This document shows positions 12,788 through 34,024 of a stretch of DNA of 64,000 nucleotides, in pieces. The position numbers and the translations under genes were made by a program. The stretch's first letter is position 1. Each line of letters begins with the position of its first letter. A model generated the notes under the pieces. The model saw only the letters and a list, made by a program, of their open reading frames with translations, was not told where the DNA came from and made no database searches. Origin of the DNA: Simkaniaceae bacterium (GTDB lineage Bacteria; Chlamydiota; Chlamydiia; Chlamydiales; JAJFMI01); the NCBI GenBank assembly GCA_040880145.1, contig JBBDIZ010000029.1:4820-68819 (forward strand), read 5' to 3'.

Positions 12788-13868
12788 AGACAAAGAGATC
12801 ATTACAGTTAAAAAGGGGGAGGTTATCAATCGCGACTTTTTTGCGTGGGGAGATAGCGTCGAAATATCGGGTACGATTAATGGAGATCTCTATGCATTTG
12901 GCTCTCAAATCTTCATCGATGGAGAGGTTAATGGTGATGTCATTGCAACAGCCGGAACGATAAATATTTCAGGAGTGATTCGAGAGGATGCCCGTTTAAT
13001 TGCGGGACAAATCATGGTAAGCGGTAAGATCGGACGAAGCCTAACCCTTATGTGTGGAAATTTAGAGATTTTATCTCCGGCAGAGATCAGTCGAAACCTC
13101 ATTGCCCTTTCCGGCAATATGGATATATCTGGGAAGATTAACGGAGAGTCAAGGCTTCATACCTCTAATTTACGCTTTTCAGGCCAATCCGGTATGAATC
13201 TCTATGCTCATACAGGATCGATGCGCATCACCTCAACGAGTCAAATAGATGGAAAGCTCGAGTACTGGAGCGATCAAAAAGGAGTCATTGATCCGGAGGC
13301 TGAGATTACTCAAGGTGTCATGCACCACCCATCTTTTATCTACTCCTTAAAAAAGCATCCCATACTCAAGTGGATCAAAATCGGTTCAAAGCTAGCTGCC
13401 TTGCTGATGAACTTTTTCTACTCTCTAATTCTGGGAATTGTTTTTATGAGATATTTCCCGCAAAAGCTCAATCGCTCGCTCTTAGCGCTCTCTGAAAAAC
13501 CTTGGCAGTCCCTTTTAACAGGACTGATGCTTTTGATATTTTTACCCTTAATTTCCTTGCTGCTTTTGATGACTATTTTGGGCGTTCCTTTTGCAATTGG
13601 CTTAATTACCATTAACGTCATTGGATTTTATACGGCAAAAGTCTTTTCAATTGTTTGGGTGTCGAAGAAGATGTTTGGGCGTTTAAAATACGAAAAGTAT
13701 CAAAAGTATTACTATATAATTTCGCTTATGCTTTACTTTTTGATCACTCAGATTGCCTATCTCGGAGGCTTTTTAACTCTGCTCTCGATGCTATTTGGCC
13801 TTGGGGCCATAGTTATTGCCAAAGCCTATCCTCGTATGGAAGAAGAGACAAAAAAGCCTATATACTGA
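12714..13868 (+). CDS. bactofilin-like beta-helix repeat protein with C-terminal multi-TM domain
   Basis: Signal peptide MKKLRFNIIGLLLLLYLPLSA. Repeats of the type GDLYAFGSQIFIDGEVNGDVIATAGTINISGVI. 4-5 predicted TM helices at the C-terminus. Overlaps the hemA 3' end by 74 nt. Confidence 0.5.
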   Translation: MKKLRFNIIGLLLLLYLPLSAKTDEDKEIITVKKGEVINRDFFAWGDSVEISGTINGDLYAFGSQIFIDGEVNGDVIATAGTINISGVIREDARLIAGQIMVSGKIGRSLTLMCGNLEILSPAEISRNLIALSGNMDISGKINGESRLHTSNLRFSGQSGMNLYAHTGSMRITSTSQIDGKLEYWSDQKGVIDPEAEITQGVMHHPSFIYSLKKHPILKWIKIGSKLAALLMNFFYSLILGIVFMRYFPQKLNRSLLALSEKPWQSLLTGLMLLIFLPLISLLLLMTILGVPFAIGLITINVIGFYTAKVFSIVWVSKKMFGRLKYEKYQKYYYIISLMLYFLITQIAYLGGFLTLLSMLFGLGAIVIAKAYPRMEEETKKPIY

Positions 13869-13879
13869 AACAACTTCAA
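13861..13879 (-). repeat. repeat family A copy (TATACTGAAACAACTTCAA), 1 mismatch
   Basis: Reverse complement TTGAAGTTGTTTCAGTATA. Contains the last Tyr codon and the TGA stop of the 12714..13868 gene. Confidence 0.9.
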
Positions 13880-13930
13880 GAATCGGTTTTAGGCGACGCG
13901 AAAGCTTTGGTGGCTTTGAAAACCCAATTC

Positions 13931-13949
13931 TTGAAGTTATTTCGGTATA
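13931..13949 (+). repeat. repeat family A copy (TTGAAGTTATTTCGGTATA), 1 mismatch
   Basis: Inverted partner of 13861-13879, 51 nt away. Ends 5 nt before the asnS stop codon. Confidence 0.9.
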
Positions 13950-32681: not shown

Positions 32682-33451
32682 AAAAATTTTTTCTCTCTTT
32701 TTTTTTATCGCTTTCTATTTTGAGAGGTGCCTCTTGCCTTGATTTCCATAACTATTCAAAGCTTTGGCTTGGGCCTCAATTTTTCCACCTTCATTTGGGT
32801 GTCGAGGAGCTCAATACTTACAAAGGGTATTTAGGAGGGGCTGCCGCCGGGTTTGAAAGAAAGTATATTTGGGATCTCTATGTCAATCTCAACGGTTCCT
32901 ACGCTTTAGGCAATCTTTCAGGAAATGGAGGTCGAAGCCGCTATATTCATGATGAATATGTTGAAGGACTCTTTGGTTTAAGCATTCCTTTAAGTTGCCA
33001 ATGTAATTGGGTCCTGACCCCTTATCTTGGATATGGATTTACCTTTGTCGATCACCATTTATCCGCTCCAAACTTGTCTTCTTTAAAGTTCCGTTACTCA
33101 AAATACTATCTGCCTATCGGATTCATCCTTGATTATACACCTTTCGATTTTTGGAATATCGGCTTGGATTTTAAGTGGATGCCTCAGATCGATCCTCTTC
33201 TTAAGATCGTTGAGCTTTCAGGGGGAAGATGGGAATTGGCTCATAAGCAAGGCTATATGGTTAAACTTCCGCTTTCGTTTGAGCTGTATGAAAAAAATCA
33301 GACCTTTTGGAGTCTGACTTTAACACCTTTTTGGCGCTGGACTAAGGATGGCTCAACTCAAGCTGTAACAAACAATGGAACTCCTTTAGATATCGTAGAA
33401 AATCTCTATATCTATTGGGGGGCTCAAGCCGCTTTTGCCATTCATTTTTAG
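32678..33451 (+). CDS. outer-membrane beta-barrel protein
   Basis: 257 aa. Signal peptide MKKFFLSFFLSLSILRGASC. Alternating-hydrophobic strands. C-terminal aromatic FAIHF. ATGA overlap with the upstream glucanase gene. Confidence 0.6.
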   Translation: MKKFFLSFFLSLSILRGASCLDFHNYSKLWLGPQFFHLHLGVEELNTYKGYLGGAAAGFERKYIWDLYVNLNGSYALGNLSGNGGRSRYIHDEYVEGLFGLSIPLSCQCNWVLTPYLGYGFTFVDHHLSAPNLSSLKFRYSKYYLPIGFILDYTPFDFWNIGLDFKWMPQIDPLLKIVELSGGRWELAHKQGYMVKLPLSFELYEKNQTFWSLTLTPFWRWTKDGSTQAVTNNGTPLDIVENLYIYWGAQAAFAIHF

Positions 33452-33454
33452 GCT

Positions 33455-34024
33455 CTATACCGAAACGACTTCAAAGTTTTTGGGTAGCTGGATCTCTTCG
33501 ATTTCACTAAATTTGCGCGCATTTACTAAACGTGTAATCAACACTTTCTCTTGAGGGGTTGAATCGATTGAGCATAAAGAATACTCCCCCTCGTGCTTGA
33601 GAAGTTTTAGATAAAAGCTCCACTTTAAAGCTAAAAGGTTTGAGCATCGGCCTAAATATTTGAGATAAGAGCTAAGGAGAAGATAGAGATCTTTACTGGG
33701 CTTCTGGGGGAGTTGGGTTTTCAAAATCATTTTAAAAAATTCAAAGGAAAGGCTCATTTTCTCCCAACTCTCTCTGATAGGCAAATGAAGATCTAGAAGC
33801 GTTCCGTCTCGATACTGAAAGAGTTCACCCCGGCCGGGCTGAAGATTGTAGTCACCCTTTGATAGAGGGCTGATTAAATTTAATTGAATTAGGTTTTTTT
33901 TTGAGGGGGCGTATGCGATAAAAGAGAGAAGACCCTCTTCTTTGGTCAAGAGGGTGCAAACTTTTTTTTCTTTAAGGATATCGATTTTTTTTAGAAGGAT
34001 GCCTTCAACTTTTATCGGTTTCAC
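33455..34024 (-). CDS. recO: DNA repair protein RecO (short form)
   Basis: 189 aa. An OB-fold-like N-terminus KVEGILLKKIDILKEKKVCTLLTKEEGLLSF is typical of RecO. No zinc-finger region. Confidence 0.55.
   Translation of the reverse strand: MKPIKVEGILLKKIDILKEKKVCTLLTKEEGLLSFIAYAPSKKNLIQLNLISPLSKGDYNLQPGRGELFQYRDGTLLDLHLPIRESWEKMSLSFEFFKMILKTQLPQKPSKDLYLLLSSYLKYLGRCSNLLALKWSFYLKLLKHEGEYSLCSIDSTPQEKVLITRLVNARKFSEIEEIQLPKNFEVVSV
33456..33474 (-). repeat. repeat family A copy (TATACCGAAACGACTTCAA), 1 mismatch
   Basis: The reverse complement TTGAAGTCGTTTCGGTATA encodes the last residues (FEVVSV) and the TAG stop of recO. Confidence 0.9.

Follow-up and report, generated by a model that had tools for sequence, protein, structure and literature searches.

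Several families of short, palindromic, non-coding repeats have been described in bacterial genomes, and they provide the background for the repeat considered here. Correia elements of Neisseria (NEMIS/CREE) are intergenic, ~100-160 bp long, and have inverted-repeat ends starting TATA... with duplication of a TA; they come in full-length classes and in shorter ones with internal deletions, can fold into long hairpins once transcribed, and have regulatory roles as promoters, IHF binding sites and RNase III sites. To our knowledge, no transposase has been identified for them. The enterobacterial repetitive intergenic consensus or intergenic repeat unit (ERIC/IRU) sequences are imperfect palindromes of ~130-170 bp that lie in intergenic transcribed regions, span a wide taxonomic range and differ widely in copy number between species. 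A duplicated TA is characteristic of insertions by the IS630/Tc1-mariner superfamily, and the remnants that Tn10 and Tn5 leave upon 'nearly precise excision' arise by palindrome-stimulated, transposase-independent deletion. Repetitive extragenic palindromic sequences (REPs) form hairpins in their own right and bear a GTAG or CGTC tag (PMC3733652). Here we analyse a 19-nucleotide motif, TTGAAGTYRTTTCGGTATA (family A), that recurs in a 64,000-nucleotide stretch of a Simkaniaceae bacterium chromosome (contig JBBDIZ010000029.1, positions 4,820 to 68,819; hereafter the window). The 19-mer is very probably the outer end of the terminal inverted repeat of a miniature inverted-repeat transposable element (MITE) related to IS630, mobilised in trans and then decayed.

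Searching the window with the 19-mer at up to three mismatches gave nine sites, at 13861 (-), 13931 (+), 18457 (+), 18503 (+), 24312 (-), 24329 (+), 28038 (+), 29625 (+) and 33456 (-), where 0.07 are expected by chance; none of 100 dinucleotide-preserving shuffles reached nine. These are the nine good copies that an earlier note on this DNA had listed from the letters alone. The mismatch spectrum is bimodal, with six perfect copies, two with one mismatch, one with three and none with two or four, and matches with five or more mismatches occur at the background count. The three-mismatch copy is the arm that overlaps its partner within a tight palindrome. The 19-mers at 18503 and 28038 have the same sequence, and the copies at 13931 and 28038 share the flank CCCAATTC, both as the note had it. 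Neither nhmmer with a profile of the full-length element nor a generic TATAC...GTATA scan found anything further in the window.

The anatomy of the element becomes clear from other genomes. A scan of one genome per species (596 Gb) returned at least 101 motif blocks (numbered with L below), about 80 of which come from at least 10 different Chlamydiota metagenome-assembled genomes (MAGs) with a GC content of 34-49%; a metagenome scan added 66 blocks with the same element architecture. The window's own genome is not among these blocks, and its nearest relatives there share ~68-72% nucleotide identity in genes. The 19 matches in other phyla lack the conserved inner flank and lie at chance level (~17 expected in 596 Gb by our own arithmetic), so the motif family is restricted to Chlamydiota, within which it is found phylum-wide. 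Searching a plasmid collection with the 165-bp element by blastn gave chance matches only, and a scan of viral contigs gave two families of chance matches, both inside phage coding sequence.

When the 128 sites in the chlamydial blocks, which are dispersed and have unrelated flanks, were stacked, the inner side of the 19-mer proved to be conserved (...AAAACCAAWTY), and conservation drops to background at the first base outside ...GGTATA. The motif occurs as (-)...(+) pairs at fixed spacings; the units that they bound range from 36 to 436 bp and are most often 165 bp long (20 cases of 164-166 bp in three MAGs). The other sizes in related MAGs are 173, 94, 71, 70, 63 and 48 bp, and one 436-bp copy carries an insertion. 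The 165-bp unit has no coding capacity and forms an imperfect palindrome along its whole length. When 14 full-length copies, drawn from five MAGs, were aligned, 37 of the 72 base pairs in the consensus fold showed at least one compensatory double change, and many of the compensated pairs are central, where the sequence varies between genomes. Based on the paired ends, the conserved interior and the sharp boundary, the 19-mer is the outer end of a terminal inverted repeat in a MITE-like family, with the end pair TA-TACCGAAAYRACTTCAA...TTGAAGTYRTTTCGGTA-TA. Each end comprises the TA target duplication, TACC, a family-specific GAAAYRAC and the start of a TTCAARAATYGG box, and the full-length form is the ~165-bp unit.

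The outermost TA belongs to the target. In CRAIB_MAG59 (Parachlamydiaceae), elements of different end types abut one another at five junctions, all of which read core-TA-core, as in ...TTTCGGTA-TA-TACTGCTTC...; no junction with two TAs or with another spacer of 0-8 nt was found in that MAG. Additional insight came from a related insertion sequence (IS) in block L048, from the Waddliaceae MAG MFD05684:

307-2066 of L048 (contig CAVVNU010000015.1): IS630-family IS with ends TA-TACCTCTC...GAGGTA-TA

The lead to its open reading frame (ORF; L048 409-1446, 345 aa) was a weak local match to a Tc1 transposase probe, and the identification rests on Pfam, which places a DDE_3 domain (2e-34) together with HTH_33 and HTH_29 in the architecture of the IS630 family. 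This IS interrupts an IS200-like tnpA gene. When the IS and one TA are removed in silico, CTAGT-TA-ATAGTCTG is rejoined, and the restored 149-aa ORF has a full-length Y1_Tnp match (9e-46). Taken together, the five abutments and the restored gene show that the outer TA of TATA is target-derived, the before-and-after reconstruction being that of the related IS and the five abutments being the evidence for family A itself. A family-A element lies 3.4 kb from the L048 IS on the same contig.

The L048 transposase has 6491 matches at E <=1e-20 in a collection of 5.8 billion proteins, one of which is named 'IS630 family transposase' by NCBI, and most of its homologues lie on contigs of 1-2 kb, as is typical of collapsed IS copies. 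For twelve of these homologues we inspected the surrounding DNA. All the inspected ISs of the family have TATAC on both sides, and most left ends read TATACC-N7-9-(A/G)ATTGAAAAATCGG. The P0049 clade, whose proteins are 82-100% identical at eight loci, has the IS right end TATACCGAAGAAAGTTCAAAAATCGG, identical to the family-A end TATACCGAAACAACTTCAAGAATCGG at 23 of 30 positions. The earlier note had named, as an outcome that would speak against its view of the motif, that it might prove to be the terminus of an annotated IS; what was found is close to this in spirit, the motif being a MITE end whose closest relatives are IS630-family ISs.

These shared termini and the TA duplication give good support to mobilisation of family A by an IS630-type enzyme. 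The proposed route is that an IS630-family (DDE_3, Tc1/mariner-like) transposase supplied in trans would cut at the TATAC ends, insert the element at TA dinucleotides and duplicate the TA.

The L048 IS also carries, on the opposite strand, a PD-(D/E)XK (PDDEXK_3) ORF within 36-nt inverted repeats (1460-1495 and 1868-1903). The same pairing of transposase and PDDEXK_3 is seen in L209; the ORF may be a passenger gene or mark an insertion nested within the IS.

A number of observations weigh against an IS630-related MITE as the full account. There is no transposase gene within the 64-kb window, and none of the ISs at the twelve inspected homologue loci has the exact family-A (GAAAYRAC) ends, the best agreement being the 23 of 30 positions above. 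The clustering of copies within 20 kb is without explanation, local hopping being one possibility. The window 19-mers are nearly free of mutation (0-1 mismatch) despite their lost interiors, which points either to recent activity or to selection on the 19-mer. Further, the element body is ~75% identical between chlamydial families, with its palindromy kept by compensatory change, and recognition by a transposase alone does not explain this combination. Finally, elements with one A end and one B end occur at three or more loci in CRAIB_MAG59, and such chimeras suggest modular ends, relaxed end specificity or more than one mobilising enzyme.

The end types concerned share one body: the same ~110-bp palindromic sequence was found under types A, B (TATACTGCTTCCAGYTGAAT..), C (TATACTCCGTCCAGTTGAAAGCTGG..) and D (TATACCACGCGCGGTTAGC..). 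The fourth type, D, was met in L209, where a ~165-bp MITE upstream of position 1501 abuts the left end of an IS. The other end types in CRAIB_MAG59 are found at the following loci:

L018 2722-2885, L019, L064, L042 3625-3791, L086 4890-5056 and L015 5854: elements of other end types

An autonomous element was sought in 174 motif-bearing blocks, among IS-sized (-)...(+) pairs, recurrent ORFs beside solo ends and long intragenomic repeats, and none was found. The two ORFs that recur are host proteins resembling leucine-rich-repeat/F-box proteins; a ~700-bp pair in L140 flanks a host ORF upstream of hemA. In a separate observation from the Waddliaceae MAG MFD09781 (L011, L044 and L073), three family-A copies abut a second repeat, (A/T)TGGGGATTGCAAAGGGGCTAGCCCCTTKGCCGGGG, at an identical junction; the two repeats may form a composite unit, or the junction may mark a site preferred for insertion.

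The conserved body could also mean that the element is more than a parasite. Here the whole-length hairpin and the perfect 19-mers of the scars would be maintained for chlamydial use, and the IS630-type transposase would act as the disperser only. The palindromy compensated across families and the reuse of the ~110-bp body under at least four end types are the observations that speak for it, and possible roles are those of structured RNA or DNA modules that determine where transcripts end or how stable they are, or of binding sites for a conserved host protein. We consider this unlikely.

In the window itself, the IS630-related MITE is represented by decayed or short forms only, namely an 89-bp element, a 36-bp palindrome, about three 'mini' forms and solo ends:

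7035-7053, minus strand: decayed or truncated copy that retains the terminal 11 nt TATACCGAAAT alone, between dapB and tRNA-Arg
13861-13949, no strand assigned: complete 89-bp family-A element, with arms 13861-13879 (-) and 13931-13949 (+), in the order TA, core, TA
18446-18475, plus strand: 30-bp mini form, TATACCGA-TTT-TTGAAGTCATTTCGGTATA, in which the left-terminal 8 nt are fused to a full right arm
18503-18521, plus strand: solo right end, a perfect 19-mer with no recognisable partner arm
24312-24347, no strand assigned: 36-bp perfect palindrome of two abutting arms, with a 16-bp stem and a TTTG loop
28025-28056, plus strand: 32-bp mini form with a degenerate left stub, TAATACC-CAATTC-TTGAAGTTGTTTCGGTATA
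29625-29643, plus strand: solo right end with one mismatch (ATGAAG...), upstream of tRNA-Leu
33456-33487, minus strand: 19-mer with stub, a probable mini form; perfect 19-mer at 33456-33474 (-) and an inward degenerate stub ..CTACCCAAAAACT

Two degenerate copies had been proposed in addition to the nine. The one at 7035-7053 stands for its terminal 11 nt only, and the candidate at 39009-39019 is indistinguishable from background. The restriction of the nine copies to 13.8-33.5 kb, which had also been pointed out, holds for every copy with up to three mismatches; as a rough estimate, seven loci would cluster within 20 of 64 kb with p ~0.006 under uniformity.

The 89-bp element sits between the convergent bactofilin-like ORF and Asn/Asp-tRNA synthetase gene. 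Its arms are identical at 26 of 30 positions, the full-length element profile (nhmmer) matches both halves, and the hairpin has a predicted energy of -21.7 kcal/mol (z = -6.8). The 36-bp palindrome lies 14 nt downstream of the pheT stop codon and upstream of a MORN-repeat ORF, both genes being on the minus strand, and folds at -16.6 kcal/mol (z = -8.3).

In the mini forms, a complete arm follows a few terminal bases of the opposite end. These forms recur in other genomes with slightly different junctions (TATACC/AATTC, TATACCGAAACC/AATTC and TATACC/AAATT), and every mini junction falls within a short direct repeat formed by the terminal T-ACCGA(AAC) of one end and the subterminal A-ACCGA or A-ACC of the opposite arm. 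The copy at 18446-18475, in the divergent spacer between rpsD and the Fic gene, is probably a deletion scar between terminal T-ACCGA and subterminal A-ACCGA, and its type of junction is also found at L021, L049, L056, L112, L137 and L152. From such junctions we infer that, after insertion, the long palindromes may be eroded by recurrent palindrome-stimulated deletions between short direct repeats, for example between the terminal T-ACCGA and the subterminal A-ACCGA of the other arm. Such deletions would yield the 89-, 71-, 48- and 36-bp derivatives, the mini scars of ~30 bp and the solo ends.

The window is an ordinary stretch of chlamydial chromosome with 38-45% GC. It encodes PEPCK, KdsA, LptB, Asn/Asp-tRNA synthetase, MurJ, rpsD, a Fic protein, PheT, a LysM protein, RecO, HPF, a sigma-54 activator, RF-1, RNase E/G and PlsX, along with four tRNAs; these tRNAs were all that Rfam and tRNA scans of the window returned, with no match at the motif copies. 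Each copy is either intergenic or reaches into the final codons of an ORF, and at four of the seven loci a stop codon is only a few nt away. The earlier note had placed all copies at gene ends or in short spacers, and as a statement on gene ends this is only partly right. No preference for gene ends emerges from the 51 occupied spacers of related genomes: convergent spacers number 13 (baseline 76), divergent ones 13 (62) and tandem ones 25 (243) (chi-square ~5.2 with 2 df by our own arithmetic, not significant), and the enrichment near stop codons and at convergent gene pairs that had been suggested as a check does not go beyond intergenic placement. Across the 128 sites, 12% are inside ORFs of at least 150 aa, compared with 80% of random positions. 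The location at gene ends is mostly explained because the copies are intergenic in a compact genome. The comparison of orthologous spacers, another suggested check, was informative: downstream of the plsX ortholog, CRAIB_MAG59 has a 165-bp copy (L023 4889-5053) and the window has none (61081-61343). This shows variable occupancy, not a recent event, the genomes being distant.

Three window ORFs take their last codons and stop codon from copies. The bactofilin-like ORF (12702-13868) terminates in the left arm of the 89-bp element (..CCT ATA TAC TGA, giving ..I-Y-stop in TATACTGA), and the LysM-protein ORF (26842-28041) ends inside a mini form (..ATA ATA CCC AAT TCT TGA, ..IIPNS-stop). The RecO-like ORF (33455-34024, minus strand) takes its last ~10 codons and TAG from the 19-mer at 33456-33474 (..TTT GAA GTC GTT TCG GTA TAG). 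Replaced C-terminal codons and stop codons in these ORFs, together with hairpins in transcripts, would be side effects of insertion. Separately, the RecO-like ORF is only 189 aa long, with a Pfam match limited to the N-terminal RecO domain, and insertion of the element may have truncated the gene.

The copies also coincide with the ends of assembled contigs. An identical-protein look-up gave a single public contig with the window region, Logan SRR27977663_166777 (16,008 bp, 100% identical; L102, corresponding to window 13879-28365), whose end falls exactly at 13879, where the left arm of the 89-bp element has its inner edge. This looks like an assembly break caused by the repeat. Many CRAIB_MAG59 contigs likewise start or end inside element copies.

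Three other explanations for the motif have to be weighed against the IS630-related MITE. The earlier note had likened the pattern to REP/MITE-like elements or to uptake signals more than to a single operator, and of these likenesses the MITE comparison stands, with element ends, palindromes and scars to support it. The REP comparison would have the copies as REP/REPIN-type palindromes mobilised by an HUH tyrosine transposase (RAYT/TIRYT), which is encoded by a single-copy gene and binds a single-stranded hairpin. Intergenic singlets, inverted doublets and tight hairpins, the forms in which the motif occurs, are indeed the pattern described for REPs (PMC3733652), and an IS200-like Y1 tnpA gene is present in one MAG (L048). 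However, all copies end in TATAC and carry neither a GTAG nor a CGTC tag, and single arms fold no better than shuffles (-1.3 to -2.9 kcal/mol, z -0.8 to +0.25). HUH transposition produces no TA duplication, which is present here; folding and duplication between them rule out a subterminal hairpin of the HUH kind. A motif scan of 0.8 Mb of blocks found no HUH-motif ORF beside the copies, and the sole Y1 gene, that of L048, is not flanked by repeats and is itself disrupted by the IS630-type IS. A REP origin thus seems extremely improbable. That the copies are functional transcription terminators or mRNA-stabilising hairpins at gene ends is a little easier to entertain, given the four loci close to stop codons, the strong hairpins of the 36-bp and 89-bp copies and the terminator-like score of the former, but it too is highly doubtful: the T-run after the 36-bp hairpin is found only on the plus strand, antisense to both neighbouring genes, the solo and mini copies are unable to form a hairpin, the spacer counts across genomes show no gene-end preference, and terminator-like counts in the region equal those of shuffles. 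A terminator effect is at most a side effect of some insertions.

The third explanation is that the 19-mer is a host-selected protein-binding or uptake signal, such as an operator, a nucleoid or segregation site, or a sequence like the DNA uptake sequences and uptake signal sequences (DUS/USS), with MITEs merely its carriers. It would account for a 19-mer that is identical across chlamydial MAGs spanning 29-54% GC and perfect in window scars that have lost their interiors, with no decay tail of 2-4 mismatches. Against this, nearly all copies elsewhere are the ends of a transposon-like unit with TA duplication, related ISs carry the same kind of end, and the copies are not tied to orthologous genes, as the plsX spacer illustrates, nor do they have a consistent orientation or distance relative to gene starts. 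DUS and USS are free-standing and reach a very high density (~1 per kb), coding DNA included. With nine copies per 64 kb, confined to 20 kb, the window is far below that density, and the copies are embedded in element ends with 12% of sites in ORFs, so the uptake-signal part of the earlier comparison falls away. A host-selected signal is, on balance, very unlikely. A promoter (sigma-70, sigma-28, sigma-54 or phage-type) was also considered and rejected on wrong spacing, inconsistent orientation and promoter-like counts equal to those of shuffles, in agreement with the note, which had seen no sigma-70/54/28 promoter in the sequence.

Two further repeats in the window are unrelated to family A. 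An inverted pair of 77 nt, at 29681-29757 and 38913-38989, has 77% complementarity and the conserved core AGGTCTACC(GT/AC)GGGGCTC(AC/GT)GGGATGTTAAGCCTTTGGAGA. Its internal hairpin shows compensatory changes between the copies (CCGTG..CACGG and CCACG..CGTGG), one copy lies just upstream of tRNA-Leu, and the only Rfam match is a sub-threshold one to RAGATH-18 (24 bits against a gathering score of 44.9). The pair may represent a small structured RNA, or else belong to a further repeat family. A second palindromic family, at 39039-39083 and 44933-44977, is inverted and ~5.8 kb apart (TTTATGACTGCCCGCG..AAAACCCA..), with a local palindrome at 44936-44987, and has no relationship to the TATAC elements.

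The chlamydial element also turned up in MAGs deposited under other names. It is carried by the CAJCHM01 blocks (L024-L092), counted above with the Chlamydiota MAGs and deposited as 'Acidobacteria bacterium BOG_genome_mining.12', where L092 shares 1.7 kb with a Parachlamydiaceae contig at 75% identity. It is carried likewise by L091 ('Verrucomicrobiae MFD09495'), which encodes a protein 46% identical to the GH63-like protein of the window, and by L050, again under a non-chlamydial name. The taxonomic labels of these MAGs may be wrong or too coarse.

Family A is an ordinary kind of genome parasite, a TA-duplicating, IS630-related MITE widespread in environmental Chlamydiota, and it reveals no new mechanism. 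No earlier description of the motif or of its element family was found in the searchable open-access literature, and as far as that literature shows this MITE group, common to many environmental Chlamydiota lineages, was previously undescribed. Its presence suggests that TA-targeting transposition of the IS630 type has been active in obligate intracellular chlamydiae. The family offers an explanation for contig breaks in chlamydial MAG assemblies and for the altered C-termini and stops of housekeeping ORFs (bactofilin-like, LysM and RecO). The 19-mer is a simple marker for typing insertion polymorphism, and the element might serve as the natural substrate of a transposon tool for a phylum in which genetic manipulation is difficult.

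Compared with known systems, family A shares with IS630/Tc1-mariner ISs and MITEs the TA target duplication and terminal inverted repeats of ~26-30 bp, and the related autonomous elements have a DDE_3 transposase with N-terminal helix-turn-helix domains and TATAC ends. It differs from IS630 ISs in being non-coding and palindromic over its whole length, with a body not visibly derived from the IS ends inspected. The mini forms resemble the Tn10/Tn5 remnants in keeping one arm and a few terminal bases of the other, a likeness of junction sequences only, and their junctions lie in short direct repeats (ACC, ACCGA or AAAC) inside the inverted arms, as in palindrome-stimulated deletion. With REP/REPIN-RAYT systems the family has in common dispersed extragenic palindromes, seen as singlets, inverted pairs and clusters and often downstream of genes, but it lacks the tag, its arms are not hairpins, it duplicates TA, and no associated RAYT was found in the blocks scanned. 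It is like ERIC/IRU sequences in its imperfect palindrome, size, taxonomic breadth, intergenic location and variable copy number, and unlike them in sequence, in having end types A, B, C and D on one body and in TA duplication. With Correia elements it shares the intergenic location, inverted ends starting TATA..., TA duplication, deleted size classes and the capacity to form hairpins, whereas the sequences are unrelated, the phylum is different and family A has a plausible relative of the IS630 type.

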